Virus record (IMG/VR): IMGVR_UViG_3300009514_000025
Span: 1-61,657 of that record
From: a virus
Taxonomy: Duplodnaviria; Caudoviricetes
DNA length: 61,657 nucleotides
Reading direction: 5' to 3' (one strand)
A model generated the notes under the pieces. It had not been told where the DNA came from. It worked only from the letters and a program-made list of their open reading frames with translations, and did not search any database. A program made the position numbers and the translations under genes. The number at the start of each line of letters is the position of its first letter. Position 1 is the first letter of the stretch. Shown one piece after another: positions 7,312-57,368 of the stretch.

Positions 7312-7332
7312 AACTATTAATTGGAGATAAAA

Positions 7333-25172: not shown

Positions 25173-26648
25173 ATGAATGAATTATTCGAAAATTGGTCAG
25201 AAACGAAAGCAGCATTGCTTGAAGGTCTTTCCGCACAAAAACAAAAGGTTGTAGCACCTTTGCTGGAAAATCAGAAAGATCATTTGATCGCTGAATCCGC
25301 CGCAGCAGGTTCTACACAAGCACATGACATCGCTGGATTTCGTAAAATCTTAATTCCAATGATTCGTCGTATTATTCCAGGCACAATTGCTACTGAGCTT
25401 GTTGGTGTTCAGCCAATGACTGGTCCGGTTGGTCTTGTTTACACTTTGCGTTATCGTTACGCAGAAGCTGTAACTGCTACTTCACATGCTAACCCATTTG
25501 GCTTTACTGGTGCAATTAGTGTTGATGATGAAGTATTCGGTAACAGTTCACCAATCCGTCAGTGGTACTCTGGTGCTGCTGGTGATGGTACTGCTTCACC
25601 TAACACACTTCCAACAAATCAAATCCCAGGTGCTGGTGCAATTGATAACTCATATTCAATGGGTTCTGGTTCACCTGCAACAGGCGCACCAGGAATTGAT
25701 GCAGCATCTGCAAATGGTATGGCATGGCCTTCAAGCCTTGGCGCGTCTGCAGGTAACACTGGTTATGTTGATGGCCTTGGTCAGACAGTGGCTGGTTCAG
25801 TTTGGGGTGGTTCTGGTAGCTACATCGAAGGTTCTGGTGGTCGTAAGATGACTATGGACGTTGTTAGTCAGTCTGTTGAAGCTGGTAGCCGTAAGTTACA
25901 AGCTGGCTGGACTATTGAAGCTATGCAGGATCTTAATGCACAACATGGTCTTGATCTTGAATCTGAAATGACACAGGCATTGTCTGCTGAAATCGTTCAG
26001 GAAATCGACCAAGAAATCATCACTGATCTTCTTGCCCTTGCTGGCACAGTTGATACATTTGATGGTTCTGCTGCGGGTGCCTATGGTACTGGCGGTAATT
26101 ATACACCTGCTTATGTTGGTGATCGTCTTGCTAACCTTGGGGTTGTTATCAATCGCGTAGCAAACGAAATCGCACGTAAGACACGTCGTGGTGCTGGTAA
26201 CTTCATCGTTGTTTCACCATTGATTGTTTCTGTTCTTCAGTCTGCTGCTAAGTCTGTCTTTGCACCTGCTGTTGATGGTTCATTCAAGGGCCCAAACAAC
26301 ACAATGTTGGTTGGTACGCTTAACGGCACAATCAAGGTTTATAGCTATCTTTGGAACCAAGCTGGTTCTGGTATTGACATGGGCGGCGTCGCTTCCCCTA
26401 GCAATGCTGACGATACTATTCTCGTTGGTTATAAAGGTGGTAATGGAGAAACTGATACCGGTTACTTCTATTGCCCATACATTCCATTGATGTCTTCTGG
26501 TGTTGTTGTTAACCCAACAACGTTCCAACCAGTTGTTAGTTTGATGACTCGCTACGGCAAGTCCGTCTTCACTAACACGCAAACATCTTTGGGTAACAGT
26601 GCTGATTACTACGGTAAGATCACGGTTGCAAACCTTGACCTTGCTTAA
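25173..26648 (+). CDS. Major capsid protein, gp23-like
   Basis: GVQPMTGPVGLVYTLRYRY, SRKLQAGWTIEAMQDL, EIDQEII, TRRGAGNF, GYFYCPYIPL, TRYG. Confidence 0.96.
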   Translation: MNELFENWSETKAALLEGLSAQKQKVVAPLLENQKDHLIAESAAAGSTQAHDIAGFRKILIPMIRRIIPGTIATELVGVQPMTGPVGLVYTLRYRYAEAVTATSHANPFGFTGAISVDDEVFGNSSPIRQWYSGAAGDGTASPNTLPTNQIPGAGAIDNSYSMGSGSPATGAPGIDAASANGMAWPSSLGASAGNTGYVDGLGQTVAGSVWGGSGSYIEGSGGRKMTMDVVSQSVEAGSRKLQAGWTIEAMQDLNAQHGLDLESEMTQALSAEIVQEIDQEIITDLLALAGTVDTFDGSAAGAYGTGGNYTPAYVGDRLANLGVVINRVANEIARKTRRGAGNFIVVSPLIVSVLQSAAKSVFAPAVDGSFKGPNNTMLVGTLNGTIKVYSYLWNQAGSGIDMGGVASPSNADDTILVGYKGGNGETDTGYFYCPYIPLMSSGVVVNPTTFQPVVSLMTRYGKSVFTNTQTSLGNSADYYGKITVANLDLA

Positions 26649-36135: not shown

Positions 36136-37503
36136 ATGGCACAAGATCCAAGAAGATTCACAGTTAAACATTGTGGCGCAGCACAAAATACGAAGGCCGC
36201 CGATGATACGAAAAGGAAAGATTTTTTCGATGGGCTTGGCAAAATCGGCGATATTGAAGTATTAAATAGATTTGGCGGCGGCAAAATTACCGCAGGTCTT
36301 CGTACCCTTGCGAAAACTTCTAATTCAATTAGAACAGGTGAAACCGATTCCGCTGTAATTCCTAATGATGTTGGTTATGTTCTTGGTGAAGTTGGAATAG
36401 ATCCTAATGCAGCACAGAAAGCAGGCCAATTTAATCCTGGTGTATTGAATAGAGGAATTGGACAGGCGGAATCAATACTTAACAGTGTTAAAGGTGGTAG
36501 TTTTTCACTTAATGATATTCCAAACGTAGTGAGCGATCTTCAAAACTTAGGATCATTAATAGATGGAATTTATACAGACAGATCTGGACAAAGCAGTACA
36601 AGAGAATTTGACGTTTGTGGTGCATCACCGTATGCTATTGATCTTTTTCAATTTGCACCAAAATATAAATTTTTATTTATTGTTCAGATTAATTTAAAAA
36701 ATACATATCAAAGTCTATCAAAAACAGCCGAAAAGTTAGCATTTGTTGTTAAAACAAGTACACGTCCAAATATTAATATAGATCATGAAGAAATTAATAT
36801 GTATAATTTTTGGACACGTGTTCCAAAGCGTGTAGCATATGAACCAATAACTATGCGATTTTATGATGATAATAAAGGTCTTGCACATCAATTTTATACA
36901 TCATATTTAAGAGCTATTAGTCCAATTAGTAGATTGGGTGGCCAACAAAGCGGTTATATGAGTATTGACTGGCTTCAAGCTAATAGTATGAAACCCAATA
37001 GTAAGGATGCGTTAAGTTCTGCTTCCTTAAGTGCACTAGTAGGAAATAATACTTCTCTTATTGATGAAATTAAACTTTTTCAAATTTATGACTATGGTAG
37101 AAAAATGACCGCATATCATTTTCATCATCCGAAGCTTCTTACGATGAATCTTGACGATTTGGATATGGCAGAATCTGGTACGGGTAGTGAAATAGAATTC
37201 CAATTTGCATATGATGCATTACACATAACACCAGCACTTTCTATAATAGGAAACCCAATCGGTCTTACTGGTTTAACAGGTGAAGCATTTGCAACCTATC
37301 CAATTAAGCCAAACCTTGGGCCTGCACCCGAAGAAGCATTTCCAGAAGATGCAGAAGATGAGGATGATTCACCTGATGCGGATGGAGATAATGTTTTCCA
37401 GAATGTAACTGGCGCAATTTCTAGTGGTATTTCATCTGTAACGGGATTAGTAAGTAGTGCATTTGATAAGGTTGCAGACTTTGGTGGCTCTCTCTTTCAA
37501 TAA
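36136..37503 (+). CDS. Tube-fold baseplate-tail junction protein (gp54/gp48-like)
   Basis: PKYKFLF...RPNI...YEPITMRFYDD...LDDLDM...FAYD tube-like domain; TATAAATA at 36106. Confidence 0.65.
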   Translation: MAQDPRRFTVKHCGAAQNTKAADDTKRKDFFDGLGKIGDIEVLNRFGGGKITAGLRTLAKTSNSIRTGETDSAVIPNDVGYVLGEVGIDPNAAQKAGQFNPGVLNRGIGQAESILNSVKGGSFSLNDIPNVVSDLQNLGSLIDGIYTDRSGQSSTREFDVCGASPYAIDLFQFAPKYKFLFIVQINLKNTYQSLSKTAEKLAFVVKTSTRPNINIDHEEINMYNFWTRVPKRVAYEPITMRFYDDNKGLAHQFYTSYLRAISPISRLGGQQSGYMSIDWLQANSMKPNSKDALSSASLSALVGNNTSLIDEIKLFQIYDYGRKMTAYHFHHPKLLTMNLDDLDMAESGTGSEIEFQFAYDALHITPALSIIGNPIGLTGLTGEAFATYPIKPNLGPAPEEAFPEDAEDEDDSPDADGDNVFQNVTGAISSGISSVTGLVSSAFDKVADFGGSLFQ

Positions 37504-38006: not shown

Positions 38007-38945
38007 ATGGATATAAAAACTAAAGAATTTATTAAAAAATCTAAAAAATATCATGGGGAACGTTATGATTATTCTGAAACAATATACGTTCATTCCATGC
38101 AAAAATTAAAAATTCGTTGTACTATACACGGAATATTTGAACTTACACCTAATAATCATTTATCGGGAAGGCAAGGCTGTCAAAAATGTTCTGGTAAATA
38201 CAAACCCAATACAGAAGAATTTATTAAAAAAGCCAGAGAAGTTCACGGTAGTAAATATGAATATGTCCATACAAAATACGGTAAAAATAATCGTACTAAG
38301 GTTATAGTGGGATGTTCCACACATGGTGAATTTCAAATAACTCCTGCTAACCATATTAGTGGTAAAGAAGGATGTCCTGAATGTGCTAAGAAGAAATATG
38401 GTGCATATCATAAAAAGAATACAACACAATTTATAAAAGAATCCAAAATAATTCATGCAGGTAAATATGATTATTCTTTGGTAGAATATACAGGAACGCA
38501 CGATAAAGTTAAGATTATATGTAATATACATGGAACATTTAACCAACGCCCATCATCACATTTACGCGGCGTGGGTTGCCCCAAATGTTCACATATTGAT
38601 TATTGTGGTGGATATGGTAAGAAGCGATTTATAAATCATCCAGAAATTAAAAATAATCCTGCTATATTATATTTAATATATGTAACAGATGAAACTGAAA
38701 ATTTTTTAAAAATAGGAATTACAGAGAAAGATCTTAATACGAGATTTATTAAAAATAATAAGTTGCCTTATACTTTTACTACAAAAATAATAATCGAAGG
38801 AAAATTATACGAATTGTATGAGCTTGAACAAAGAATTAAACATAAATATAAAAAATATAAGTATATTCCAAATAAGAAATTTAATGGATATACGGAATGT
38901 TTTGCTACTAAATGCGCAGACATGTTGTGTGAGGAATTAAAATGA
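38007..38945 (+). CDS. Free-standing putative homing endonuclease (three zinc-ribbon repeats plus GIY-YIG-like domain)
   Basis: Three EFI..HG..Y.Y..C..HG.F..P..H..GC..C repeats; C-terminal LYLI..FLKIGIT..E..GYTECF; very AT-rich. Confidence 0.7.
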   Translation: MDIKTKEFIKKSKKYHGERYDYSETIYVHSMQKLKIRCTIHGIFELTPNNHLSGRQGCQKCSGKYKPNTEEFIKKAREVHGSKYEYVHTKYGKNNRTKVIVGCSTHGEFQITPANHISGKEGCPECAKKKYGAYHKKNTTQFIKESKIIHAGKYDYSLVEYTGTHDKVKIICNIHGTFNQRPSSHLRGVGCPKCSHIDYCGGYGKKRFINHPEIKNNPAILYLIYVTDETENFLKIGITEKDLNTRFIKNNKLPYTFTTKIIIEGKLYELYELEQRIKHKYKKYKYIPNKKFNGYTECFATKCADMLCEELK

Positions 38946-39385
38946 GCACTGAAACGAAAGAAATAGAAGTAGCAATTGAACATCCATTAGAAGAGATATT
39001 CGATGTGGAAGCAGGTACGACTCTTATGCCTCGTACCGAAAAAACTACTGAACTGGTAGCATCAGAAGAGTACGATAACAAAGACAAAGAAATCGAAAAC
39101 CAGTTTCAAGAAGTTTATGATGCTGCACTTTCTGCGTTTGAAGATCAAGTTGCTGAAGCAGAAGTTATTGAGGGGAAGTATAAAGCCCGTAACATGGAAG
39201 TTGGTGTTCAATTATTGAATACTGCCTTGGCAGCAGCAAAAGAAAAATCTGGCTTAAAACAACACAAAGATAAAACAGCTATTGCTAAAGGTAAGCTAGG
39301 AGTAAAAACGACCAACAATACGTTGATTATTGCTGATCGTAATGACATCTTAAGAACAATGATGGGTAATAAAAAAGAAGATTAA
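38942..39385 (+). CDS. Terminase small subunit, gp16-like
   Basis: Helical 147 aa, ARNMEVG.QLL..AL, C-terminal NNTLIIADRNDIL; upstream of the large subunit. Confidence 0.7.
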   Translation: MSTETKEIEVAIEHPLEEIFDVEAGTTLMPRTEKTTELVASEEYDNKDKEIENQFQEVYDAALSAFEDQVAEAEVIEGKYKARNMEVGVQLLNTALAAAKEKSGLKQHKDKTAIAKGKLGVKTTNNTLIIADRNDILRTMMGNKKED

Positions 39386-40692
39386 TCCAATATTTCCATT
39401 GCCACTTCAAAAGCATCAGTAACATTTTCCATCAAATCTACTTCTTTTGTTTCTTCTTTCTTAATTTTTAATTTATTTAACTTTGGTAAATTATCAAATG
39501 TTATTTCAACATAATAATCGCACGGTTCTTTTGTGATTGTAGTTAATGAACCATCTTTTGTAGTGTCTACTTCTTGTTTTTGATTGACATATTTACCATA
39601 ACGACTCATAAATTTAATAACAGGCGCAAATGTATTAGGGTCAATAATAACGCCCGTAGTCATCAATGGGATATATGGTGCATAGAAGTATCCTGCATCT
39701 ATTTCACCATTTCCGCCTTTATAACCAACTATGGCTTTATCTTGCTTAAGACCATAGTCACAGTATATTTTGATCATATCATTCCACGTTCCAAGATATT
39801 TAACATAACCATAATCTTTATCCGTTTCTGATGTTTTTACGAATTTTTTACTATTTTTTAAAATTTCAGCAATTGTTTCGGAAACGATTGCAAAATTGCC
39901 TGCACCTCTTCGGGTTCTTTGTGCAATTCTATTTGCGGCACGATTAATAAGAAATTCGATAGTTTGAATTACATCGTTTGTAATACACATATCATCAGCC
40001 AAATTTTTTGACATATCAAAAGTTTCTTTATGAGCGACAGCACAGATATCATTTCTGATTTCTTCATATATTTCTTGTGCAATTTCATTGCCATAATCTC
40101 TGTCATCTGGAATACCAGTTCCAGATATGTCTTGTTGGGCGACAATCTCCATATTAAGTTTTAATTTTCTACTACTTGCTTCTAATGCAGCTGAATTAAT
40201 TTCAAGGCTTAGTCTTGTTTCTTGATCTTCACCAATTGTATTAACTTTTTCCGTTTTATATTGTAACAAATAAATTAACCCAACTGGACCAGTCATTGGT
40301 TGAATACCAACAAAATGTTTAGCAACTTGTTGATCTATCATGCGTTCTGCAAGAGATTTAAGTATATGATCTTGTGAAATTGTATGTATTGAACTATTGT
40401 TGTGAGCATTGACACTACTGATATGATTTTTCATATTTTCCATCAATGATTGTTTAACCTTATCTACGGATTCAATAGTTGGTGATTCTTTTGTTAAATC
40501 AGCAACGGATAAGACTGTTTCTTCTTCTGAAGATGTGAATCCCGTTTCAGGTACGATATCTTCTAATTCTTTAATGAGTTCACTAAATGTAAACGATTTT
40601 TTTGTCTTTGTCACAATTGAATTTTTATCTTTAGCGCGCAAATCAGCAGCCGGATCTTCCAGCATCATTTTTTTCATTTTTTCGATATCCAT
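39382..40692 (-). CDS. Major capsid protein paralog with AFEVAMEILD C-terminal tag
   Basis: VGIQPMTGPVGLIY, SSRKLK, ANRIAQRTRRGAGNF, VGYKGGNGEIDAGYFYAPYIPL, MSRYGK. Confidence 0.85.
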   Translation of the reverse strand: MDIEKMKKMMLEDPAADLRAKDKNSIVTKTKKSFTFSELIKELEDIVPETGFTSSEEETVLSVADLTKESPTIESVDKVKQSLMENMKNHISSVNAHNNSSIHTISQDHILKSLAERMIDQQVAKHFVGIQPMTGPVGLIYLLQYKTEKVNTIGEDQETRLSLEINSAALEASSRKLKLNMEIVAQQDISGTGIPDDRDYGNEIAQEIYEEIRNDICAVAHKETFDMSKNLADDMCITNDVIQTIEFLINRAANRIAQRTRRGAGNFAIVSETIAEILKNSKKFVKTSETDKDYGYVKYLGTWNDMIKIYCDYGLKQDKAIVGYKGGNGEIDAGYFYAPYIPLMTTGVIIDPNTFAPVIKFMSRYGKYVNQKQEVDTTKDGSLTTITKEPCDYYVEITFDNLPKLNKLKIKKEETKEVDLMENVTDAFEVAMEILD

Positions 40693-40816
40693 GAACTCAT
40701 CCTCTTTTCTTTGTATTTACTATTGAAAAAATTCTACATGCAATAGATTGGTAACCTAAAGATTTGGTATAGTAAATAAAGATATGGAAATAGGATAATA
40801 ATTAAGGAAGATTGTA

Positions 40817-42373
40817 ATGGCGCGCGCAAAGAATAATAACCTAAAGAAACCTGGACAGGAACTTGAATATACACATGAACAGGTGATGGAATTGAAGCGC
40901 TGTGCAGAAGATCCAATCTATTTTATAAAAAAATATGTACAGATTCAACATCCAACAAGAGGCGCTATACCATTTGACCTTTATTCTTATCAGGAAAAAA
41001 TGATAAGGGCATATCAAGATAACCGTTATACGGTTGTTCTTTCTGCACGCCAAACAGGTAAATCTGTTACATCCGCTGCATATCTTCTTTGGTATGCAAT
41101 GTTTCATTTTGATAAAACTATTTTGATTGCATCTAATAAAAACGCAAATGCAATGGAAATGATTCTGCGTATTAGATTCGCGTATGAAAATCTTCCTTTC
41201 TGGTTGAAACCTGGCGTTAAAGACGATGGTTGGAATAAGCACGAAATTGGTTTTGATAATGGTTCTCGTATTGTGTCAACTGCAACATCAGAAGATTCTG
41301 GTCGTGGTATGGCTATTTCACTTTTATTCCTTGATGAATTTGCATTCGTAAAACATGCTATTCAAGATGAATTTTGGACATCTATTGCACCTACATTATC
41401 AACGGGTGGTTCATGTATAATGACATCCACTCCAAATGGTGATATGAACATATACGCACAAGTTTGGCGTGGTTCACAAATGGGTACAAATGGATTTTAT
41501 CCTATACATGTTAAGTGGGATGAGCCACCAGATCGTGATAGCAAATTTAAAGAAGCGGAAATTGGAAGAATCGGTGAAAGACGCTGGCAACAAGAATATG
41601 AATGTGTATTTTTATCATCCGATTCGCTGTTGATCGATTCTTTATTCTTAACAAATATTTCATCAACAATTGAAAAGATCGTTCCTAAGCTTACAGTAAA
41701 TGATGTTGTTTTATTTGAAGATATAAAACCGATGACAACCTATTTGCTTGGAGTTGATCCTGCAACCGGCAATGGTGAAGATTTTAGTGTTATAAGTATA
41801 TATGAATTTCCATCAATGGTTCAAGTTGGCGAATATCGTTCTAATACTATGTCAACAAATGATTTATATGGTGTTATGAAAAATATTCTAAAACACATGG
41901 AATCGAAAGGTGCCATGGTATATTTCTCAATAGAAAATAATGGTGTTGGTCAGGGACTGATCGCATTATATGAAGCAGATGAAGATCCTTTGAACACGGT
42001 TGAATTTATTTCCGAAGATGGTAGAAATAAATTAGGATTTACCACGACTGCTCGTAGTAAAATGCGTGCATGTGTTAACCTGAAGGAAATGCTTGAGAAA
42101 TCTAATATGCATATTCGTTCCAAAATTCTTTTATCTGAATTGAAATCTTATGTTCGACATCGTGGCGCATATGCAGCGCAACCAGGTGCCACAGATGATT
42201 GTATTGCTGCAACACTTATTGTACTTAGACTGGTAGAAGAAATTGCATCATATGAACAAGCTGCTTTTGATAAGCTATATTCTGGTGACTATGATGAATG
42301 GGACTCGTCAGAGTGGGATGGTTATGAAGAAGGTTACGATGATAACGATGAAGGAATGCCAATTTTATTTTAA
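40817..42373 (+). CDS. Terminase large subunit, gp17-like
   Basis: ARQTGKS Walker A, LFLDEFAF Walker B, TSTPNG, GVDPATG, DDCI. Confidence 0.95.
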   Translation: MARAKNNNLKKPGQELEYTHEQVMELKRCAEDPIYFIKKYVQIQHPTRGAIPFDLYSYQEKMIRAYQDNRYTVVLSARQTGKSVTSAAYLLWYAMFHFDKTILIASNKNANAMEMILRIRFAYENLPFWLKPGVKDDGWNKHEIGFDNGSRIVSTATSEDSGRGMAISLLFLDEFAFVKHAIQDEFWTSIAPTLSTGGSCIMTSTPNGDMNIYAQVWRGSQMGTNGFYPIHVKWDEPPDRDSKFKEAEIGRIGERRWQQEYECVFLSSDSLLIDSLFLTNISSTIEKIVPKLTVNDVVLFEDIKPMTTYLLGVDPATGNGEDFSVISIYEFPSMVQVGEYRSNTMSTNDLYGVMKNILKHMESKGAMVYFSIENNGVGQGLIALYEADEDPLNTVEFISEDGRNKLGFTTTARSKMRACVNLKEMLEKSNMHIRSKILLSELKSYVRHRGAYAAQPGATDDCIAATLIVLRLVEEIASYEQAAFDKLYSGDYDEWDSSEWDGYEEGYDDNDEGMPILF

Positions 42374-43003
42374 TTACCTATAATATTGTTTAATAATATC
42401 AGTGCTTCCACCAATATCAATTATAACTGGTTTATTATTATATACGCCCCAATTGGCAACCCGGCCAAAATCTCCTGCGGCGATATCGTAATTGCCAACT
42501 AGATCTACAAAACTGTTTATAGTTTCGTTAGTTTCATATGCTTCTTGAAACTTTTCATCCTCTTCATCGTACCTTCTTTTGCCGGTCATGTGATTTGATA
42601 ATCGTATTAATTCTTTTGGTGTTAAACCATTAAACAGTTTTTTGAATATTGTTGGAGTCATCTTTTCTGCTTTTTCTGTATGAATCCATGTTGGTTGATC
42701 GTGTTCTTCATCATAGTCTATTATTGGAATGGTTATTCCAAGACCAGTAACATAATAATCATTTAAGACTTGTGCTTCATATTCATTCTGAGCCATGCCC
42801 TTGGTATTTTTGGCGATTTTTAATATAGTGGGCCTACCTTCGTATGGGATTTCGAATGCTATCCTTGAAGAACCCGCCCCCATTTTGGCAGCTCGCTGCT
42901 TAGCGTATTCAACCCGCTGTTTAAATGAAACAGTAGGTTTATATACAGATTTGTCCCATTCGGCTGGTAGTGGAACTTCTAATAATAATTCTTTTACTTT
43001 CAT
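42374..43003 (-). CDS. Protein-kinase-like protein
   Basis: GAGSSRIAF Gly-loop, ILKIA Lys, QNEYE, DFGRVANWG catalytic-loop-like segment, PVIIDIG; likely start MKVKELLLE just after ATAAATA at 43012-43018. Confidence 0.6.
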   Translation of the reverse strand: MKVKELLLEVPLPAEWDKSVYKPTVSFKQRVEYAKQRAAKMGAGSSRIAFEIPYEGRPTILKIAKNTKGMAQNEYEAQVLNDYYVTGLGITIPIIDYDEEHDQPTWIHTEKAEKMTPTIFKKLFNGLTPKELIRLSNHMTGKRRYDEEDEKFQEAYETNETINSFVDLVGNYDIAAGDFGRVANWGVYNNKPVIIDIGGSTDIIKQYYR

Positions 43004-47578: not shown

Positions 47579-48067
47579 ATGGCATTTGTTCTAACCAGAC
47601 CAATTTCTGGCGGCGGCGCGGGAATCTCTGGCATGACCACAACAAACATTAATGGTCAGCCGATGATAACATTGGAAGATATTACTCGCAGTAATAAGAT
47701 TCTTTCGGTAGCGGAAAATCCTGTTTCATTTGCAGAAAACGTATTATTACATAATGATTGGATTCAGATTGGAACCGCAAGCGATGCAAATACTGCTTTT
47801 GTTGCTGACTTCGATGGGACAATTGTTGCCGCTACTGGAATATGTGAAAATGTTAGAAATCATGATAAAAATATAAATCTCTACATTAATAGTACAGATC
47901 AGGGAGCGATAGGTTCATTTACTGGTTCGACTCTTGACACATTTATAAATACAATATTGAATATAGACTTTAACCAAGGCGACATGATTAGATTGCGCGC
48001 CGTAGATGGAATCACTGGAAAAATTGAAGACAGTGTTATCAAACTTACTATCAAATGGAGAGGATAA
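47579..48067 (+). CDS. Virion protein, stand-alone KWRG domain
   Basis: Paralogous to the C-termini of 48068..50989 and 51525..57365. Confidence 0.7.
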   Translation: MAFVLTRPISGGGAGISGMTTTNINGQPMITLEDITRSNKILSVAENPVSFAENVLLHNDWIQIGTASDANTAFVADFDGTIVAATGICENVRNHDKNINLYINSTDQGAIGSFTGSTLDTFINTILNIDFNQGDMIRLRAVDGITGKIEDSVIKLTIKWRG

Positions 48068-50989
48068 ATGAGCTTATTAATTAGAAATAAATTGGGTGGT
48101 AGTCCACCTGCGGCAGTCCCTATTGATGATTTGGGATTTGAGGTTGTATCGGGTACCGATTATAATCTATTAAATGAAGAGGCAGCAGATGTTCAATCGT
48201 CTGCGCAAACTGGTGGTGACTTAAATACCGCAATACTTGCAGGCGATATTGTTGTACTTAGTCCAAAGGATGGAACAACAGAACTTTCAGCAGCTAATAG
48301 TATAGCTGTCTTAAAACTTCACAATGATCCTAATTGGGGTATCAATGGAGCAAATCTTACTGATCTTGATGATGTTGATTTAACAGGTTCACCATTACCC
48401 GCAACCGGTGATGTTCTTCAACTTGATGGTTCTGGAAATTGGATAAATGTCCAACCAACTACGGTTGCTGGAAGCATTAATTTTGGCGATCTTGCTGATA
48501 TTAATCCTGATACCGGTTCACCATATCGACCTATCACTTCCTTTTATATTTTAGAAGGTGATGGTTCTGGTAGTTTAAATGTTGTAGATGGTACTACAGA
48601 TACTTCACTCTTTATTCCATGGATTGAAGACACGGCAGGCGCAGCAGTAGCTGGCGGTGTACAAACTGATCTTACTTTAACGTATAACGCGTCCACTAAT
48701 AAAATTGATGCGTCTGTTGATGACAGCTATCTTCGTAATGATGGTGATACATTAGATTCGGGAACATTAAACATTGCATCTGGTGCTTCAATTGTTGTTG
48801 CTACTGGTGCAAGCATTTCTTGGGCTGATGCGCCAACCAATGGTAATCATCTTGCTAATAAAACATATGTTGATAGTGTTGCTTCTGGTCTTGATACAAA
48901 AGAATCCTGTGATCTTGCTACGACGCCTGCAACGGGTTCTCCGCAAACTGGTTTTGGTAATATCCCAGGTTATGGATTTTCTGGTTCACCAGCAACTGGT
49001 ACATTTACTGGCGTAAATGTTTTCGATATTGATGGTGATTTATCACCTCCTAGTGTTGGATATCGTATTCTTGTTAAAGATCAGGATGATCCAAAAGAAA
49101 ATGGTATTTACGAGGTTACTGTTGTTGGTGGTTCACCACTTGGTTCAAGTTGTACTTTAGTACGTGCAGATGATTTTGATGGAGTGCCACCTGCTGAAGT
49201 TTCTGCTGGTTCATTTACATTTATTGAGCATGGCGTTAGTAATGCAGGCACTGGCTGGGTTGTAACTGGCACTGGTGATTTGACTGTTGATACGGATGAT
49301 ATCAATTGGTCACAATTCTCTGGTGCAGGCACATATACGACTGGTGATGGTTTAGGGTTAACAGGTACAGAATTCTATTTAGATATTAATAATCTGAATA
49401 CGATTGCTGTTGTTGGCGCGGATGAAATTGCTTTCAATGATCAAACCAACGATACAACTAAAAAACGTACATTCACAAGTCTTATTTCAGATTTAGGACT
49501 TTATACTTCTAGTAATTTAACAGCTTCTGATGGTGTGGTAATCACTGGTGGTGATATTCAATTAGATATTACTAATCTTCCATCTTCAACACCTTCATTA
49601 TCAGCTGAAATGGTATTTGATACTGGTGGTACTGGTATACACAATAAAGCAACCGTACAATCTTTCTTCAATCAAGCGAATGTTGTTTATAATATCACAG
49701 CAAATGGTATTCTTACCAGAACAGCAGATGATACATATGCATCACGCACAATAGTAAAATCTACTACAGCTAGTGAAGAAGGTATCATAGTAACTAATGG
49801 TAATGGTGTTTCTGCTAATCCATCTATTGGTATTGATATTGAAGGTACTACTGCTTCTGCCTCTGATCTAGCATCAACCGATGAGTTCCTTGGTTTTAAT
49901 GGCACAAATAACCGTGCATTTACTGGTCAGCAAATTGCTGATGGTGTTTCAGCTATATTGGGTGGTCTTGGTAATGCATATACAACGATTCAAGGCGACT
50001 CTGGTTCAGCATCTGCAGGTAGTTCAAGTGCTACAATATCATTCATTGGCGCAGCCAATGGTGGTATTCTTACTGTTGCTACTGATTCTGCACCAGACAC
50101 TGTAACCTTTGCACTTGATCTCCATGATTTAGCTGCAGGTAGTGGAACTGTTGATCTTACAGATGTGCTTGCAGTTGCAGAAGGTGGTTCACCACTTGGA
50201 TCAACTGTTCAATACACTTTCCAAGATGTTATTACCGATTTAAATATTGTAAGTGGTGTTAATGGTACACCTGGTATTGTTATCGGTGATGGTGCTGGTA
50301 ATTATACAACTAATACAATTGCCGTAAATGGTGTTGGTAATAGAGATGGTCTTATTGTAGTAAATGGTGATATGACAGGTTCACCATATGATAGTACTAT
50401 TACATTTGGTTTGGATATTAACAATAATGCAACAGCAGGTGAAGATTTAGCAGCCGCCGATAAGATTATTGCTTATAATGGCTCCCAAGCCGCTAACCAT
50501 GCATTTACAGGACAAGAAGTTGCAGATGGTGTTTCAACAATGTTGGGACTTGGCGGTATTACCGTTACTACAATTAATGGTCAAGAAGTTCTTACACTTG
50601 TTGATACAACACGTTCTAACAAAGTTCTTTCTGTTGGCGATACTTCTGTCACGTGGTCAGAAAACAAAGTTGGTAACAATGATTGGTTACAAATCGGTGG
50701 TGCAGTTGATGCTCTTAGCGGTTATCTTGTTCCATTGAACGCAACGATTGTTAAAGTTACTGCACATACGGCAGATAATAAAGGAAACACAAAACCAATC
50801 AACTTGTATATTGATGGTTCACTCAATAGTACTATTGGCACATTTAATGGCCCATCAGGCGAAGATGATTTCAGAGATGTAACATTGAATATTGATGTTA
50901 ACCAAGATCAAAAACTACGTTTACGTGGTGGTACTGGTGGTAATATTGAAGATACGGTGGTTACAATTTGGTTGAAATGGAGAGGATAA
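48068..50989 (+). CDS. Fibre/decoration protein
   Basis: ANKTYVDS, RILVKDQ..ENGIY motifs typical of phage fibres; C-terminal KWRG domain. Confidence 0.75.
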   Translation: MSLLIRNKLGGSPPAAVPIDDLGFEVVSGTDYNLLNEEAADVQSSAQTGGDLNTAILAGDIVVLSPKDGTTELSAANSIAVLKLHNDPNWGINGANLTDLDDVDLTGSPLPATGDVLQLDGSGNWINVQPTTVAGSINFGDLADINPDTGSPYRPITSFYILEGDGSGSLNVVDGTTDTSLFIPWIEDTAGAAVAGGVQTDLTLTYNASTNKIDASVDDSYLRNDGDTLDSGTLNIASGASIVVATGASISWADAPTNGNHLANKTYVDSVASGLDTKESCDLATTPATGSPQTGFGNIPGYGFSGSPATGTFTGVNVFDIDGDLSPPSVGYRILVKDQDDPKENGIYEVTVVGGSPLGSSCTLVRADDFDGVPPAEVSAGSFTFIEHGVSNAGTGWVVTGTGDLTVDTDDINWSQFSGAGTYTTGDGLGLTGTEFYLDINNLNTIAVVGADEIAFNDQTNDTTKKRTFTSLISDLGLYTSSNLTASDGVVITGGDIQLDITNLPSSTPSLSAEMVFDTGGTGIHNKATVQSFFNQANVVYNITANGILTRTADDTYASRTIVKSTTASEEGIIVTNGNGVSANPSIGIDIEGTTASASDLASTDEFLGFNGTNNRAFTGQQIADGVSAILGGLGNAYTTIQGDSGSASAGSSSATISFIGAANGGILTVATDSAPDTVTFALDLHDLAAGSGTVDLTDVLAVAEGGSPLGSTVQYTFQDVITDLNIVSGVNGTPGIVIGDGAGNYTTNTIAVNGVGNRDGLIVVNGDMTGSPYDSTITFGLDINNNATAGEDLAAADKIIAYNGSQAANHAFTGQEVADGVSTMLGLGGITVTTINGQEVLTLVDTTRSNKVLSVGDTSVTWSENKVGNNDWLQIGGAVDALSGYLVPLNATIVKVTAHTADNKGNTKPINLYIDGSLNSTIGTFNGPSGEDDFRDVTLNIDVNQDQKLRLRGGTGGNIEDTVVTIWLKWRG

Positions 50990-50992
50990 TAA

Positions 50993-51505
50993 ATGAGTTT
51001 TACAATTCGTAATCTTACAGCTGGAACAATTGCGATTGATGATCTTGGCTTATCACTTGCTGCGTATGAGGATTATGATTTAACTCAAGATGATGCAAGA
51101 GATATTGCACAAAGTACAGACTTAATTGCTGCAATTAATGCAGATAATGTTCTTGTTGTAGATCCTATAAGTACAGGTTCACCAGTTACATTATTATCAA
51201 AAGCAAATAGTTTAATTTGTGTAAGTGTCGCCAATAATCCACATTTTAGGATTATTGGCGGCGAGCTTGCACATTTAGATGATGTTAAAGATACACTACC
51301 TACAGATGGTTATGTTCTTACTTTTGACGCAGGAGCTAGTAAATGGGAACCGGCGGCGGCCGCGGCCGGCGCGGGTGGTATAACACAATTTCCATTTTAC
51401 CGTGCTAATGGTGTATTAGATCCTATACCAGTAACTTACATCGCAACGTTTCCATTCTATAGGGCAGACGGCACACTAGATCTTATACCAATAGATGCAT
51501 CATAA
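50993..51505 (+). CDS. Virion accessory protein
   Basis: Shares the IRN..IDDLG N-domain and the LDDV repeat; C-terminal FPFYRA(N/D)G.LD duplication. Confidence 0.65.
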   Translation: MSFTIRNLTAGTIAIDDLGLSLAAYEDYDLTQDDARDIAQSTDLIAAINADNVLVVDPISTGSPVTLLSKANSLICVSVANNPHFRIIGGELAHLDDVKDTLPTDGYVLTFDAGASKWEPAAAAAGAGGITQFPFYRANGVLDPIPVTYIATFPFYRADGTLDLIPIDAS

Positions 51506-51524
51506 TAAAATGAGATATTAAATA

Positions 51525-54500
51525 ATGGCAGATAAATTACCAATTAAGGCAAAGTGGTCAGGTGGATCGCCAGATGATGTTATTGCTTTACAAGAATTTC
51601 AATCGACTGATACTATAGCCCTTAATTATCTCTCTGGCGGTGCATCGCCTTCTGAAGGCCATGTACTTACTTGGGGCGGTAGCCCATTGGGATGGATTAC
51701 AGCTGCCCCAGATCTTGGCGCTAATAACTTAGATGACTTATTAGATGTTTTCATTACAGGAGCAGGTTCACCAGAAGTACCAGCAGACAATGAAGTTCTT
51801 GCTTATGATAGTAGTTCTGGTAATTGGATTAATCAAACCGCATCCGAAGCTGGGTTATCTATAGTAGGCCACACACATACCTTAAATGAACTTAGTAATG
51901 TATATGTATCTGCTGGTTCACCAGAAATAACAATAGGTTATGTGCTTACTTATGGTGGTAGTCCTTTGGGTTGGTATGCAATTGCGCCCGCTGTCGGAAT
52001 AGATGCGTTAGATGATTTAACAAACGTTACCATTGCATCTGTTACATCAGGCGAAATTTTAGTATATCAGGGATCACCAGCCGAATGGCAAAATAATACA
52101 TTGGCAGAAGCAGGCATTAGTGCTATAGGCCATACACACGCAATGGTTGATATCACAGATTCAACGTGGATTAGTGATATTACAAGTGAAAATCTTGAAG
52201 ATTTAAACAACGTTTCATTAACAGGTTCACCACAACCAGTATCAGGTGATTTATTAAGATGGAACGGTTCAACGTGGATCAATTATCCAGATAGTAATTT
52301 TTCATCATCTGGTCATAATCATACTAAATCTGATATTACAGATTTTACCGAAAGCGATTATGTTCATACTACCGGCACTGAAACTGTTGGTGGTAATAAA
52401 ACATTTAGTAATGATATTATAATTTCGGGTGATCTTACTGTTAATGGTACTACAACTACCATTAATACAACTACACTTGAAATCGGCGATAACATTTATC
52501 TTCTCAATGCAGACATGGATGATGGTAGTCCAATTCCTGCACCTACACAAGATGCTGGTTTTGAAGTCGAGCGTGGTATAGTTGATAATGTGTCTTGGCT
52601 TTGGGATGAAACTGTCGATACGTTTAGACCTAAATTAGGAACAGGTGAAGCATATTTAGGATATGTATTAGATCCTACTAATGATAACCATATTGGTGAT
52701 CGTGGGTATAACGATTTAAGATATTCTAATATAAGTCATGCACACGCAATAAATGAGTTAAGTGATGCTACTATAACTTCACTTACAGCAGGCGAAGTAT
52801 TAATTTCTGCGGGTTCACCACTTGGTTGGATTAACCAAACATTAGCTGAAGCAGGCATCTCATCTGATTCACATACACACATTATAAATGATTTAACAGA
52901 TATAACTATTGCATCTGTTACATCTGGTGAAATTCTTGTCTATCAAGGTTCTCCAGCCGAATGGCAGAACAATACATTAGCAGAAGCAGGTATTAGTGCT
53001 GTTGGTCATACACATGTTATGGTTGATATTACAGATTCAACATGGATCAGTGATATTACAAATGAACCAATTGCCGACCTTAGTGATGTGACAATTAATG
53101 CTGTCGGGTCAGGCGAAGTCCTTGTTTATCAGGGTTCACCAGCCGAATGGCAAAATAACACATTAGCAGAAGCGGGAATTTCTGCGATTGGTCATACGCA
53201 TGTCATGGTTGATATTACTGATTCAACTTGGATTAGTGATATTACAGCAGAACCTATTGCCGATCTTAGTGATGTTACTGTTGCTTCTCTTGGTGCAGGT
53301 GAAATATTAGTTGCTGTCGGATCACCGCTTACATGGATTAATCAAACATTAGCAGAAGCAGGTATTGCATCTGATTCACATACACATATAGTTAATGATT
53401 TAACAGATGTAACTATTGCATCTGTCGGGTCAGGCGAAGTCCTTGTTTATCAGGGTTCACCAGCCGAATGGCAAAATAACACATTAGCAGAAGCGGGAAT
53501 TTCTGCAACAGGCCACACACATGTGATGGTAGACATTACTGATAGTACTTGGATTAGTGATATAACAGCAGAATCATTGGATGATCTTAGTGATGTTTAT
53601 ACGCCAGCCCCACAAGTAGGTGAATTGCTTACTTACGGTGGTAGTCCGTTGGGTTGGTATGCGGCCGCACCCGCTGGTGGAGTAGATGCATTAGATGATT
53701 TAACCGATGTAGTAATTACAGGTTCGGTAGGTTCACCATTAACTCCCGCTGATAATGAGTTGCTTGCTTTTGATATTGGTTCAGGTAATTGGATTAATCA
53801 AACAGCAGCACAAGCAGGGTTATCTGTAACTGGTCATACACATGTTATGGTTGATATTACTGATAGTACTTGGATTAGTGATATTACAGGAGAACCTATT
53901 GGTGATCTTAACGACGTTACAGTTACATCACTTACATCAGGTGAAGTATTACTTTCCAGTGGTTCACCACTTGGATGGATAAATGCAACGCTCGCAGAAG
54001 CAGGCATATCTGCAACTGGCCATACCCATGTTATGGTTGATATTACAGATTCTACATGGATTAGTGATATAACAGCCGAAAATATTGAAGACTTAAACAA
54101 TGTTTCATTAACAGGTTCCCCAGCGCCAGTATCTGGGGATTTATTAAGATGGAACGGTTCAACATGGACAAACTATCCAGATAGTAATTTCTCATCGTCT
54201 GGTCATACACATGTCAAGGCGAATATTACAGACTTCACTGAATCTGACTATGTTCACACGACGGGTGTTGAAACTGTTGGTGGTAATAAAACCTTTAGTA
54301 ATAATATAATTATCTCTGGTGACTTAACAGTTAACGGTACAACGACTTCTATTAATACTACCACACTTGAAATAGAAGATAATATTTATCTTCTTAATTC
54401 AGGAATGGTAGGAAGTCCTCTTGTTGCTCCTACACAAGACGCTGGCTTCGAAGTCGCCCGTGGTACAGCTACAAACGTATCATGGTTGTGGGATGAAACT

Positions 54501-57365
54501 TTTGATGTATTTAGACCTAAAATTGGTGCAGCAGAAGCGCACTTAGGATATGTACTTGATCCAACCAATGATAACCATGTCGGTGATCGTGGATATAATG
54601 ATCTTAGATATTCTTCTATTAGTCACGTACACGCCGTGGATGATTTATCCGACGCAACAATTACTTCACTTGGTACTGGTGAAATATTACTTTCAAGTGG
54701 TTCACCACTTGGATGGATAAATGCAACACTTGCAGAAGCAGGCATTGCATCTGATTCTCATACACACATATTAAATGATTTAACTGATGTAGTTATTACG
54801 CAAGGTTCACCTCTTGTTGATAATGACGTTCTTGCTTTTGACACTACATCGGGTAATTGGATTAACCAAACAGCAGCACAAGCTGGTTTGTCTGTAACAG
54901 GTCATACGCATGTTATGGTTGATGTTACCGACAGTACTTGGATTAGTGATATCACCGCTGAACCAATCGCGGATTTATCTGACGTTACAGTAACTTCACT
55001 TACAGCAGGTGAAATATTGGTTGCTGTTGGTTCACCGCTTACATGGATTAACCAAACATTAGCAGAAGCGGGAATTTCTGCAACAGGACACTCGCATACT
55101 AAATCTGATATTACAGATTTTACTGAATCTGATTATGTTCATATTACTGGTACTGAAACAGTATCAGGCGCGAAATCATTTACTGCAAGTACAACAAAAA
55201 TAGGTGGAACAACAGCTTCATCAGAAGTTCTTTCTGTTCAAACCACATCAGCAGATACTTGGTTAGAAATGTTAAACAATGGAGGTACTGGTAAAGGTGC
55301 TTTCTTTGGTTTAACAACCAATGATTTTCAAATATGGAACTATCAAGCAGGTAGCATTTCTTTTTATACAGATACGAGCGATTCATCTGGTACTGTAAGA
55401 TTTGTTTTAACAAATGATGGAAATTATATTTTCAGTAATCTTACCAGTAGTGGAATGGGCATTGCTACAATAGATGGATCGGGATATCTTGGAAGAGATG
55501 CAGATTTAGAATTACTTTCTGATGTTACTGTAACTTCTCTTGGTATTGGCGAGATATTACTTTCCAGTGGTTCACCGCTTGGATGGATCAATGCTACATT
55601 AGCAGAAGCAGGCATTTCCGCAACCGGACACTCGCATACAAAATCTGACATTACAGATTTTACTGAATCTGACTATGTTCATACTACCGGCGTTGAAACT
55701 ATTGGTGGTAATAAGACCTTTAGTAATAATGTTATAGTTAGTGGTGATCTTACTGTTAATGGTACTACAACTACCATTAATACAACTACACTTGAAATCG
55801 GCGATAACATTTACTTATTAAACGCAGATATGGATGATGGAAGTCCTATTCCTGTACCAACACAAGATGCTGGTTTTGAAGTTGAACGCGGCGTAGTCGA
55901 TAATACATCGTGGCTTTGGGATGAAACATTAGATGTATTCAGACCTAAATTAGGAACAGGTGAAGCATATTTGGGATATGTTCTTGACCCTACTAACGAC
56001 AATCACGTTGGTGATCGCGGGTATAATGATTTAAGATATTCTAATATAAGCCATTTACATGCAGTAGATGATTTATCTGATGCTACTATAACTTCACTTA
56101 CAACTGGCGAAATTTTATTTTCAAGCGGCTCGCCGGTTGGATGGACAAATGCAACATTAGCTGAAGCGGGCATCGCGTCTGATTCACATACACATCTAAT
56201 AAATGATTTAACGGATGTTATTGTATCTTCTGTTACATCAGGTGAAATTTTAGTATATCAAGGTTCTCCTGCGGAATGGCAAAATAATACATTAGCAGAG
56301 GCTGGAATATCAGCAGTTGGTCATACTCATGTTATGGTTGATATTGCCGATTCTACATGGATCAGTGATATAACAAATGAACCTATTAGTGATCTTAATG
56401 ATGTTACAATCACTTCACTTGCTGCCGGTGAAATATTAGTTGCTGTTGGTTCCCCACTTACATGGATTAACCAAACGTTAACAGAAGCAGGCATAGCATC
56501 TTCTTCACATACACACGTATTAAGTGATCTTACTGATGTATATACAACAGGCTCGCCCGCGCCACAACCTGGAGATGTTCTTACTTACGGCGGCAGTCCA
56601 GTTGGTTGGTATGCATTAACAACTGCTGGCGGCGTGGATTCATTAGATGATTTAACAGATGTAACTATTACTGGAACTGGTTCACCTGAAGTACCTGCAG
56701 ATAATGAAGTATTAGCATATGATAGTGGATCTAGTGAATGGATTAATCAAACACCAAAAGAAGCTGGCTTAGTTGCAGGACCTACATCTTCAACAGATAA
56801 TGCAGTCGTTCGTTGGGATGGTACAAATGGTGCATTAGTTCAAGATAGTGGTGTAATGATTGATGATAGCGATAACGTTGTTATTCCTGGTAGCATAAAG
56901 ATTAGTAATGCTGCCTCCCCTATTATTTCTGGTGTAATGACTATTGAAGATATTAATGGTCAACCAATGATGTGCATGGAAGATACAACACGCGCCAACA
57001 AAAAATTAACAATAGAAACGGTGAATATAGCGTGGTCTGAATCAACATTAACCAATTTTGACTGGATGCAAGTTGGAGCAGCGATTGATGCAGATTCAAG
57101 TTATATTATGCCATTTGATGGAACAATAGTTAAGGCAACCGGACATTGTGAAAATGCTTTGGGTAACACGAAGGATATTAGATTGTATGTTAATACAACA
57201 TTAAATGGCACAGCAATGGGAACGCTTACTGGTGGCGCAAACGCAACATTTAATACAACATTAAACATTGATTTCAGTGCGGGTGATCGTATACGCCTCC
57301 GTGCATGGACGGGTGGCACAATTCGAGATACTATTGTCACCTTATGGATTAAATGGAGAGCATAA
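51525..57365 (+). CDS. Very long repetitive fibre protein (1946 aa)
   Basis: Many DLxDVT..GE.L..GSP..W.N.TLAEAGI..HxH repeats; three GDLTVNGTTT.INTTTL modules; KWRA end domain. Confidence 0.85.
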   Translation: MADKLPIKAKWSGGSPDDVIALQEFQSTDTIALNYLSGGASPSEGHVLTWGGSPLGWITAAPDLGANNLDDLLDVFITGAGSPEVPADNEVLAYDSSSGNWINQTASEAGLSIVGHTHTLNELSNVYVSAGSPEITIGYVLTYGGSPLGWYAIAPAVGIDALDDLTNVTIASVTSGEILVYQGSPAEWQNNTLAEAGISAIGHTHAMVDITDSTWISDITSENLEDLNNVSLTGSPQPVSGDLLRWNGSTWINYPDSNFSSSGHNHTKSDITDFTESDYVHTTGTETVGGNKTFSNDIIISGDLTVNGTTTTINTTTLEIGDNIYLLNADMDDGSPIPAPTQDAGFEVERGIVDNVSWLWDETVDTFRPKLGTGEAYLGYVLDPTNDNHIGDRGYNDLRYSNISHAHAINELSDATITSLTAGEVLISAGSPLGWINQTLAEAGISSDSHTHIINDLTDITIASVTSGEILVYQGSPAEWQNNTLAEAGISAVGHTHVMVDITDSTWISDITNEPIADLSDVTINAVGSGEVLVYQGSPAEWQNNTLAEAGISAIGHTHVMVDITDSTWISDITAEPIADLSDVTVASLGAGEILVAVGSPLTWINQTLAEAGIASDSHTHIVNDLTDVTIASVGSGEVLVYQGSPAEWQNNTLAEAGISATGHTHVMVDITDSTWISDITAESLDDLSDVYTPAPQVGELLTYGGSPLGWYAAAPAGGVDALDDLTDVVITGSVGSPLTPADNELLAFDIGSGNWINQTAAQAGLSVTGHTHVMVDITDSTWISDITGEPIGDLNDVTVTSLTSGEVLLSSGSPLGWINATLAEAGISATGHTHVMVDITDSTWISDITAENIEDLNNVSLTGSPAPVSGDLLRWNGSTWTNYPDSNFSSSGHTHVKANITDFTESDYVHTTGVETVGGNKTFSNNIIISGDLTVNGTTTSINTTTLEIEDNIYLLNSGMVGSPLVAPTQDAGFEVARGTATNVSWLWDETFDVFRPKIGAAEAHLGYVLDPTNDNHVGDRGYNDLRYSSISHVHAVDDLSDATITSLGTGEILLSSGSPLGWINATLAEAGIASDSHTHILNDLTDVVITQGSPLVDNDVLAFDTTSGNWINQTAAQAGLSVTGHTHVMVDVTDSTWISDITAEPIADLSDVTVTSLTAGEILVAVGSPLTWINQTLAEAGISATGHSHTKSDITDFTESDYVHITGTETVSGAKSFTASTTKIGGTTASSEVLSVQTTSADTWLEMLNNGGTGKGAFFGLTTNDFQIWNYQAGSISFYTDTSDSSGTVRFVLTNDGNYIFSNLTSSGMGIATIDGSGYLGRDADLELLSDVTVTSLGIGEILLSSGSPLGWINATLAEAGISATGHSHTKSDITDFTESDYVHTTGVETIGGNKTFSNNVIVSGDLTVNGTTTTINTTTLEIGDNIYLLNADMDDGSPIPVPTQDAGFEVERGVVDNTSWLWDETLDVFRPKLGTGEAYLGYVLDPTNDNHVGDRGYNDLRYSNISHLHAVDDLSDATITSLTTGEILFSSGSPVGWTNATLAEAGIASDSHTHLINDLTDVIVSSVTSGEILVYQGSPAEWQNNTLAEAGISAVGHTHVMVDIADSTWISDITNEPISDLNDVTITSLAAGEILVAVGSPLTWINQTLTEAGIASSSHTHVLSDLTDVYTTGSPAPQPGDVLTYGGSPVGWYALTTAGGVDSLDDLTDVTITGTGSPEVPADNEVLAYDSGSSEWINQTPKEAGLVAGPTSSTDNAVVRWDGTNGALVQDSGVMIDDSDNVVIPGSIKISNAASPIISGVMTIEDINGQPMMCMEDTTRANKKLTIETVNIAWSESTLTNFDWMQVGAAIDADSSYIMPFDGTIVKATGHCENALGNTKDIRLYVNTTLNGTAMGTLTGGANATFNTTLNIDFSAGDRIRLRAWTGGTIRDTIVTLWIKWRA
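53101..53506 (+). repeat. 85-bp exact direct repeat inside the fibre gene
   Basis: 53101-53185 equals 53422-53506. Confidence 0.8.
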
Positions 57366-57368
57366 TAG

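Follow-up and report, generated by a model that had tools for sequence, protein, structure and literature searches.

Why should a phage with a well-conserved major capsid gene keep a second, shortened gene of the same family, inverted between its two terminase genes and ending in a peptide that also ends several small proteins of the same genome? This question is raised by the IMG/VR virus record IMGVR_UViG_3300009514_000025 (positions 1 to 61,657; "the window" below means this whole stretch of 61,657 nucleotides), a fragment of a T4-core jumbo myophage that is 18% complete by the CheckV estimate. The gene in question occupies positions 39382 to 40692 on the minus strand (436 amino acids [aa]; a whole coding sequence with its stop) between the small and large terminase subunit genes (terS and terL), and it encodes a paralog of the gp23 family of capsid proteins. 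We observed a conserved capsid-fold gene that lacks the usual insertion, in conserved synteny, with a C-terminal tag that is itself conserved and enriched at the ends of open reading frames (ORFs); some of the other tag bearers are pieces of virion proteins. We tentatively read the paralog as an accessory look-alike with the capsid fold, which would occupy or contend for a position of the major capsid protein while its tag docks to a partner shared by the tagged family.

The family assignment is firm. The paralog matched the Pfam family Gp23 (PF07068) at 188.8 bits against a cut-off of 24.4 (E = 2.5e-55) and the PHROGs family phrog_138, "major head protein" (E = 2.3e-52), which bears out the sequence-only reading of the window, where a second gp23-like gene on the opposite strand between terS and terL had been noticed. 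The paralog is 36% identical to the capsid protein of the window over 274 aa (E = 5e-46) and 42% identical over another 71 aa. It is not the major shell subunit; a separate and far better conserved gene for that protein lies in the head module (25173 to 26648, plus strand; 491 aa, untagged; phrog_138 at 5.3e-97) and is the model for the paralog. Between its residues 146 and 160, the paralog has a stretch of 13 aa; the capsid protein has 129 aa at this site. That insertion is 48% Gly+Ala+Ser, compared with 27% in the remainder of the capsid protein, and the Gly/Ala/Ser-rich insertion is therefore indeed missing from the paralog, as had been claimed. At the same site, T4 gp23 has 118 aa and T4 gp24 has 99 aa.

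We modeled the paralog with AlphaFold 2 (AF2) from a 34-sequence alignment (predicted local distance difference test score [pLDDT], 77.7). The model has a confident HK97 fold at residues 78 to 410, and we placed the core at residues 78 to 404 (39481 to 40461, minus strand). A hairpin of strands 137 to 150 and 158 to 171 forms the E-loop; the missing insertion falls at its tip, where the model has no insertion domain. In T4, according to the available excerpts of PMC11664910, the external insertion domain sits in the E-loop. T4 gp23 (7VRT and 8GMO) and gp24 (1YUE) took the top Foldseek ranks (E = 5e-15 to 6e-14), and the search does not separate gp23 from gp24; other HK97 capsids were matched as well. 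The 77 residues ahead of the homologous region (40462 to 40692, minus strand; starting MDIEKMKKMMLEDPAA) are 38% charged, with a net charge of -7, and were modeled as low-confidence helices. Their start motif is common to several orthologues and is absent from all other ORFs of the window and of G001, a 363,531-bp IMG/VR record called complete that we used as the relative for pairwise comparison. The long charged N-terminal extension described by the sequence-only reading is thus real in the window but is not a general trait, since it shrinks to 11 aa in the G001 orthologue.

At its other end, the paralog continues into a charged linker at residues 405 to 423 (LNKLKIKKEETKEVDLMEN; 39424 to 39480, minus strand), the later part of which was modeled as disordered (pLDDT below 50 at residues 414 to 422), and then into the tag at residues 424 to 436 (VTDAFEVAMEILD; 39385 to 39423, minus strand), a predicted helix that stands apart in the model at residues 424 to 435. 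The tail is 44% charged, and the linker differs in length among orthologues. The protein ends VDLMENVTDAFEVAMEILD, i.e., ...DAFEVAMEILD. The true capsid protein ends ...ITVANLDLA, without the tag motif, in agreement with what had been claimed from the sequence.

A database search with the paralog returned 16 orthologues (E = 1e-143 to 7e-58), and ordinary gp23 proteins start at 2.6e-47. In a careful tree, into which two tandem-fused proteins were entered as halves, the 16 orthologues form one clade (support, 100/99). The reading frame is intact in all 16, and 57 columns are invariant in an alignment of 15 orthologue sequences, including the gp23 core motifs and the tag. Scanning IMG/VR with the single paralog sequence gave 11 stretches, none of which was confirmed, and an alignment-based scan gave four loci. 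The paralog lies between terS and terL, on the opposite strand, in 4/4 related IMG/VR contigs, G001 among them. Against G001, the paralog is 48% identical and a cassette of small tagged ORFs (described below) is 37 to 46% identical, while TerS reaches 82%, TerL 87%, the capsid protein 86%, and the portal 90%. The whole window-G001 set (47 pairs, a few of which are overlapping antisense ORFs) has a median of 71% and a 10th percentile of 45%. Judged by these identities, the paralog is fast evolving. The paralog could be a decaying duplicate without a function of its own, and G001 does carry a third Gp23-family ORF that is degenerate and untagged (298 aa; G001:24225-25121, minus strand; L016:4225-5121; Pfam E = 9.2e-11) and has lost the TRRGAGNF motif. 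The intact frame in 16 orthologues, the invariant columns that include the tag, and the conserved synteny leave decay the least credible of the explanations that we considered.

The tag itself can be written as [FY]-[DEN]-x-A-M-x-[ILV]-[ILV], and we counted it, in any frame, when a stop came within 0 to 2 residues. By this count it occurs five times in the window, 12 times in G001, and not at all in the cultured phages XacN1 and Xoo-sp13. Thirty shuffles of G001 gave a mean of 0.57 and a maximum of 2 tags at a stop, against the 12 observed. The form of the motif that begins with F has five occurrences in the six frames of the window, four of them within one residue of a stop, and 200 shuffles of the window gave a mean of 0.04 and a maximum of 1 at a stop. 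The five tagged ORFs of the window are the paralog and four translationally coupled ORFs at 12315 to 13434, so the tail of the paralog is the tag of the 12.3- to 13.4-kb cassette, as the sequence-only reading had it. A tail motif that is not conserved among orthologues had been named there, together with a finding of about 55 copies at capsid vertices, as grounds for giving up the idea; the motif is instead kept in 16/16, all of which end F-x-x-[AS]-M-x-x-[ILV] plus 0 to 1 residues. F428, A431, and M432 are invariant in the 15 aligned sequences, and the IMG/VR locus L001 has a Met-to-Leu variant of the tag (FCDALKLLD). Across 17 tag instances, synonymous codon sites vary and the residues are kept; selection therefore acts on the peptide and not on an RNA or DNA signal.

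Short C-terminal peptides on unrelated proteins have several known uses, and the tagged bodies here are likewise mostly unrelated to one another. One use would be a degradation or turnover tag that lets a host or phage protease remove a set of proteins at a given time, which a short, partly hydrophobic C-terminal peptide on otherwise unrelated proteins might suggest. C-terminal degrons need a free end, whereas here 0 to 2 variable and often charged residues may follow the tag, which is moreover predicted to be helical and acidic; we found no link to a protease and consider this explanation very improbable. In T4, gp43, gp33, and gp55 are unrelated proteins with short, acidic-hydrophobic C-terminal tails that bind the sliding clamp. 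We rejected a clamp-binding function for the tag, as this clade has such tails of its own: the G001 DNA polymerase (G001:259945-262587) ends ...SLLTDSLLDF and gp55 of the window (7321 to 7851) ends ...SEELIIFNK, endings that resemble those of T4, and neither is the tag. A Pfam search for gp45 gave no match anywhere, controls included, and so has no bearing on this point.

The tag also occurs outside these two genomes. As a DNA pattern in IMG/VR, it was found in G001 only. In metagenomes, the pattern matched 99 stretches; we examined 80 loci, 21 of which have an in-frame tagged ORF, and took 16 of the 21 to BLAST. Half of these contigs (8/16) hold homologues of tagged proteins of the window or G001. 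The other pattern matches are probably due to chance or are unrelated. Homologues of the cassette proteins, themselves tagged, were present in eight further metagenome contigs.

What do the other tagged proteins look like? In the cassette, all four ORFs lie on the plus strand. The 48-aa ORF (12315 to 12461), with the ending YDKAMKLLET, overlaps at its start with the stop of the gp46-like gene and is fused to the next ORF in the relatives L093 and L128. That next ORF (12462 to 12809; 115 aa; ending AFERAMEIV) has orthologues in five other contigs and weakly resembles the first part of the sheath C-terminal domain (30% identity over 46 aa with sheath residues 482 to 526; hhalign probability, 21%; E = 0.001). 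The 98-aa ORF (12809 to 13105; ending AFDEAMEIV) is a free-standing copy of the portal clip, comprising its tip and helix. It is 47% identical over 32 aa to portal residues 262 to 292 (VDVGKMPPQRV... versus IDVGKMPPQRV...), and hhalign against the portal gave a probability of 85% (E = 5.7e-6). The 110-aa ORF (13102 to 13434; ending AFDDAMKII) is the best-conserved member of the cassette and has a confidently modeled all-beta body (aligned as 8 sequences; AF2 pLDDT, 84.8). We rejected it as a copy of a virion protein: BLAST found no match in the window or G001, and hhalign against the portal gave a probability of 0.1%. No fold match emerged from Foldseek (best E = 0.2) or VIA (best Z = 3.9).

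The portal protein from which the clip pieces derive (20801 to 22435, plus strand; phrog_213 at 4.9e-98) has its clip region at residues 262 to 361. The piece copied in the 98-aa ORF corresponds by alignment to about residues 287 to 317 of T4 gp20, within the clip domain (279 to 358). The available part of PMC4493910 describes modeled contacts of the gp20 clip tip residues N291, M292, R295, and K296 to the packaging ATPase. A complex prediction for TerL (35-row alignment) with the clip copy, run without controls, scored 0.00 and carries no weight either way. A BLAST extension had hinted that the tag might derive from the start of portal helix alpha-8; this was unsupported, as the profile alignment stops at portal residue 361.

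Virion pieces are combined in a tagged chimera in G001 (G001:223295-224602, minus strand; L026:3295-4602), whose 435 aa join a sheath C-terminal domain (Pfam E = 1.6e-9; 41% identical to the phage's own sheath over 106 aa) to a portal clip region (hhalign probability, 98.8%; E = 4.3e-17 over portal residues 262 to 361). It also has a short capsid-like stretch, which is weak (Pfam E = 0.011). All of its six database relatives end ...FDD[AS]ME[LV]x[KE], and four bear both domains among their precomputed Pfam matches. The window fragment ends short of the region that matches the chimera. In addition, a tagged 78-aa ORF on metagenome contig L092 lies above the Pfam Portal_T4 cut-off. Other tag bearers of G001 are small Cys-rich proteins or proteins with DUF6794. 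The "mimic set" that the sequence-only reading saw joined by the tag therefore stands for the portal clip copy and the conserved sheath-portal chimera; it does not extend to the 13102-to-13434 ORF, and the case of the 12462-to-12809 ORF is weak.

The mechanism that we propose starts from a protein with a complete HK97-type gp23 core that has lost its external E-loop insertion domain. Its C terminus is a flexible charged linker of roughly 20 to 35 aa followed by a short amphipathic helix (consensus, [FY]-[DEN]-x-A-M-[EK]-[ILV]-[ILV]), and this helix may be a docking tag for one partner common to all tagged proteins. The tag marks a family of accessory proteins that evolve fast and belong to a single clade of uncultured, XacN1-related jumbo myophages; several of them are stand-alone copies of the interfaces through which virion proteins of the same phage assemble. 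Among modes of action, the likeliest would be competitive occupancy of a position or interface that the major capsid protein normally uses, as practiced at pentamers by T4 gp24 and by the satellite protein Ccm. The paralog may act on head assembly or packaging in the phage that encodes it, with the tag displayed outside the fold and tying it to the partner of the other tagged proteins.

Where the tag would point is suggested by other HK97-fold shells, in which the C terminus faces outward near a symmetry axis (PMC11664910, available excerpts). A paralog built into a capsomer would accordingly show its tags on the outside. Such a placement fits a vertex-like occupant, or one like the protein Ccm discussed below, and fits poorly with an inward-facing, core-targeting signal. 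It also suits an ordinary penton, the functional counterpart of T4 gp24, which would form pentamers at the 11 non-portal vertices and carry the tail as a lineage-specific addition for recruitment or incorporation; each penton would then display five tags. The resemblance to gp24 is considerable. Both proteins are gp23 paralogs with an intact HK97 fold (Foldseek E = 6e-14 for PDB entry 1YUE), the paralog is a conserved, single-copy, syntenic gene in a structural and packaging block, and T4 gp24 also evolves faster than gp23, judged by its long branch. Unlike the paralog, gp24 keeps the E-loop insertion (99 versus 13 aa), has almost nothing after the core (5 versus 32 aa), and has no tag in common with other proteins. 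Its gene directly follows gene 23, whereas the window paralog lies between terS and terL.

Phylogeny does not choose between the two. A quick tree joined T4 gp23 with gp24; the careful tree did not join them, and its deep nodes were without support. In an approximately unbiased (AU) test, the tree with gp23 and gp24 as sisters (P = 0.553) and the tree with gp24 joined to the tagged clade (P = 0.486) were both accepted. As the two constrained trees are equally acceptable, phylogeny cannot say whether the paralog is the gp24 orthologue; that the second tree is not rejected counts for a penton, and the first fits just as well.

Two kinds of relatives fit a penton less easily. XacN1, whose capsid protein is 62% identical to that of the window, has no second gp23 gene. 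In addition, two relatives encode tandem fusions (P0007, 702 aa; P0009, 717 aa, L003:2667-4820) in which two divergent, insertion-less gp23 paralogs share one frame. The tag stands at the far C-terminal end only, and the halves fall into different sub-branches of the tagged clade. Such double paralogs fit poorly with a five-fold ring. A tail held in common with small non-capsid proteins is likewise unexpected for a penton. A gp24-type vertex role is thus weakened by the missing insertion, the tagged tail, the tandem fusions, and the lack of an XacN1 counterpart; we think it unlikely on balance, although it is a serious contender.

Several points nevertheless weigh against the accessory look-alike that we favor. 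Neither the fold and conservation of the paralog nor its place in the structural block and its faster rate speak against a plain vertex role, and the tree that joins gp24 to the tagged clade was not rejected. The fused forms could be cleaved by the prohead protease. The cultured relative Xoo-sp13 has an insertion-less gp23 paralog of its own, gene 243 (gp243; QDJ96429.1), directly upstream of terS and adjoining both terminase genes; unlike the window paralog it lies on the same strand, it is untagged, and it is very divergent (33% identity). No other cultured homologue of gene 243 was found. The tag system is therefore no precondition for a capsid-like protein. Several tagged proteins resemble no virion protein, so the tag alone does not mean "mimic." We found no partner for the tag, and the paralog is known here from its sequence alone; a query for public sequencing runs covering 38900 to 42400 listed none, nor any holder of RNA.

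Could the tag instead bring proteins into the head? A C-terminal helix might direct the small tagged proteins, along with the paralog, to the inside of the prohead, where they would serve as internal or ejected proteins. As a group, the tagged proteins are diverse, fast evolving, and often in tandem, with only a terminal peptide in common, and the available portions of PMC3012670 and PMC7411985 describe the T4 internal proteins in the same way, as diverse and rapidly changing proteins with a common short terminal peptide. Cargo of family 1 encapsulins uses C-terminal peptides of about 10 aa (PMC11664910, in the excerpts available), and the SPN3US protease is proposed to reach the prohead by means of a C-terminal propeptide (PMC7411985, likewise in part). 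The T4 prohead protease gene 21 (L034:7449-8087) ends ...AYMALAEAMKKAL (...LAEAMKKAL), a loose, vague likeness to the tag; the protease of the window ends differently. A tag that served as a prohead protease tail was rejected, since 0/150 prohead protease representatives end in the motif. None of the window's own protease, scaffold, portal, and 147-aa core-position ORF ends in it either. The T4 signal, carried by the capsid-targeted proteins IPI to IPIII and Alt, is an N-terminal stretch of 10 to 20 aa that gp21 removes, whereas the tag is C-terminal, the tagged proteins have no common N-terminal motif, and the P1-like position before the hydrophobic pair is variable (E, K, N, G, A, or M). Here, unlike among the T4 internal proteins, the tag is also on a capsid-fold protein and on portal and sheath copies, all known from genes alone. 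A paralog built into the shell would, moreover, have its C terminus outward (PMC11664910, as excerpted). We give a prohead-targeting tag little credence.

Beside the paralog, some relatives carry one further ORF. This ORF of about 282 to 304 aa lies between terL and the paralog in G001 (L002:9136-10050, minus strand), L003 (1759 to 2637, minus strand), and L004 (3188 to 4036, minus strand); it is absent from the window and L001. The 304-aa copy in G001 shares 42% identity with the TerL ATPase domain (E = 5e-68) and has neither the nuclease domain nor the tag. Its Walker A lysine (RQTGKS to RQTGIT) and its Walker B glutamate (LDEF to LDCF), both invariant in 35 TerLs, are replaced. Judged by these substitutions, the G001 copy, on which the comparison with TerL was made, is a catalytically dead copy of the TerL ATPase domain.

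A dead terminase copy in the same interval also suits the view that tagged look-alikes are soluble immune decoys, which would soak up or blunt host sensors of virion proteins and use the tag as a common inhibitory or recruiting contact. Avs sensors recognize TerL and portal proteins, and CapRel and Lit recognize capsid proteins. The proteins that have been copied here are conserved late proteins of this sort, the copies diverge fast, and the small tagged genes of G001 vary and lie dispersed over the genome. The binding of such a sensor, however, usually activates it, and we found no likeness to a known anti-defense family, although PADLOC and the anti-defense libraries were not searched. No paper that links Avs4 to the portal clip turned up in a literature search. 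We consider a decoy role unlikely. In a broader version, the tag would mark a phage system not described before, made of free-standing copies of the phage's own interfaces (capsid fold, portal clip, sheath C-terminal domain, and the nearby dead terminase ATPase) wired to a single hub, either blinding host sensors or timing when assembly and packaging partners come together or apart. We find this scheme rather doubtful, if somewhat less so than a decoy alone.

The proposed role has partial precedents. Ccm of SaPIbov5 is a capsid protein homologue that occupies pentamers and redirects assembly (PMC8569155, in the part available). It resembles the paralog as a second HK97-fold protein at capsid protein positions, a position that is proposed in the case of the paralog. 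Unlike the paralog, Ccm is satellite encoded and acts against its helper phage; the paralog belongs to the phage's own gene order in 4/4 contigs, with flanks 82 to 87% identical. The available text on Ccm describes no tag family. Family 1 encapsulins also combine short C-terminal peptides on unrelated proteins with an HK97-fold shell, as the excerpts of PMC11664910 describe; their shell protein is untagged, whereas here an HK97-fold protein bears the tag. In the literature that we searched, we found no description of a tagged gp23 paralog, a stand-alone portal clip gene, or this motif; supplementary tables (e.g., the XacN1 virion proteome) and any Xoo-sp13 paper were outside the search.

The surroundings of the paralog are those of a structural module. 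In the first part of the window, baseplate genes are followed by gp55, gp47, and gp46, the small-ORF cassette, and a RuvC-like resolvase and helicase. In the second part, the portal, protease, scaffold, and capsid protein genes precede neck, sheath, and tube genes, gp4, an HNH endonuclease gene, terS, the paralog, and terL. The terS-like gene (38942 to 39385, plus strand; phrog_445 at 3.9e-8) is convergent with the paralog, which it overlaps by 4 nucleotides (nt), and terL (40817 to 42373, plus strand; matches to Pfam Terminase_6N and PHROGs) is divergent from it across a 124-bp intergenic region (40693 to 40816). The ATG start of the paralog has AAGAGGA just upstream. The sequence ATAGTAAATA occurs 22 to 31 nt upstream of the paralog start (40714 to 40723, minus strand) and 39 to 48 nt upstream of terL (40769 to 40778, plus strand). 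These copies resemble, by sequence, a (T/G)ATAAATA motif found upstream of many structural genes and are not an established promoter.

The nearest cultured phages are Xanthomonas phages XacN1 and Xoo-sp13, Stenotrophomonas phages CM1 and RAS14, and Ralstonia phage RsoM2USA; the TerL of XacN1 is 53% identical to that of the window. TerL relatives more than 60% identical show that the clade is large. Six of the TerL relatives (P0140, P0167, P0184, P0195, P0202, and P0216) are 850 to 885 aa long and have a LAGLIDADG domain (PF14528), which suggests inteins or homing endonuclease insertions in terL of this clade.

Other genes of the window also differ from their relatives or occur as paralogs. The HNH-type endonuclease gene between gp4 and terS (38007 to 38945, plus strand) is probably a mobile insertion; G001 has no HNH gene at that position, and the best match in that genome (39% identity) is found 118 kb away. 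The gp46/SbcC-like ORF (8953 to 12315, plus strand) has 1,120 aa, versus 763 aa in G001. Its additional N-terminal 400 aa or so match PHROGs labeled as terminase, primase, or helicase-loader ATPases and may be an inserted element or a fusion. A 455-aa tail tube paralog (36136 to 37503, plus strand; 71% identity in G001) lies directly 3' of the 196-aa tube gene, and both match phrog_4542. Two more sets of common C-terminal endings occur on neighboring large ORFs at 47579 to 57365 and 57369 to 61264 (plus strand): three end ...(L/I)KWR(G/A) and three end ...GTWYVN(R/G)L...QGY(T/I)(I/V/L)(K/E)EI(D/R)(N)(A). These sets (47579 to 61264) are probably modules of tail fibers that have a C-terminal domain in common.

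Additional capsid protein genes tend to be classed as vertex proteins and given no further thought. In this phage, a 9-residue motif at the C terminus links one of them to a family with a stand-alone portal clip domain and a conserved sheath-portal chimera, which provides a testable peptide/receptor handle and bears on the question of what large phages gain from partial copies of virion proteins that they also encode in full. Were the paralog simply a penton, its tag would even so be a docking site of an unusual kind, displayed on the outside of a capsid. If the receptor were a host sensor, the tagged proteins would represent a new class of anti-defense, and if it were a phage assembly factor, they would add a new layer of control over head assembly or DNA packaging in jumbo phages.

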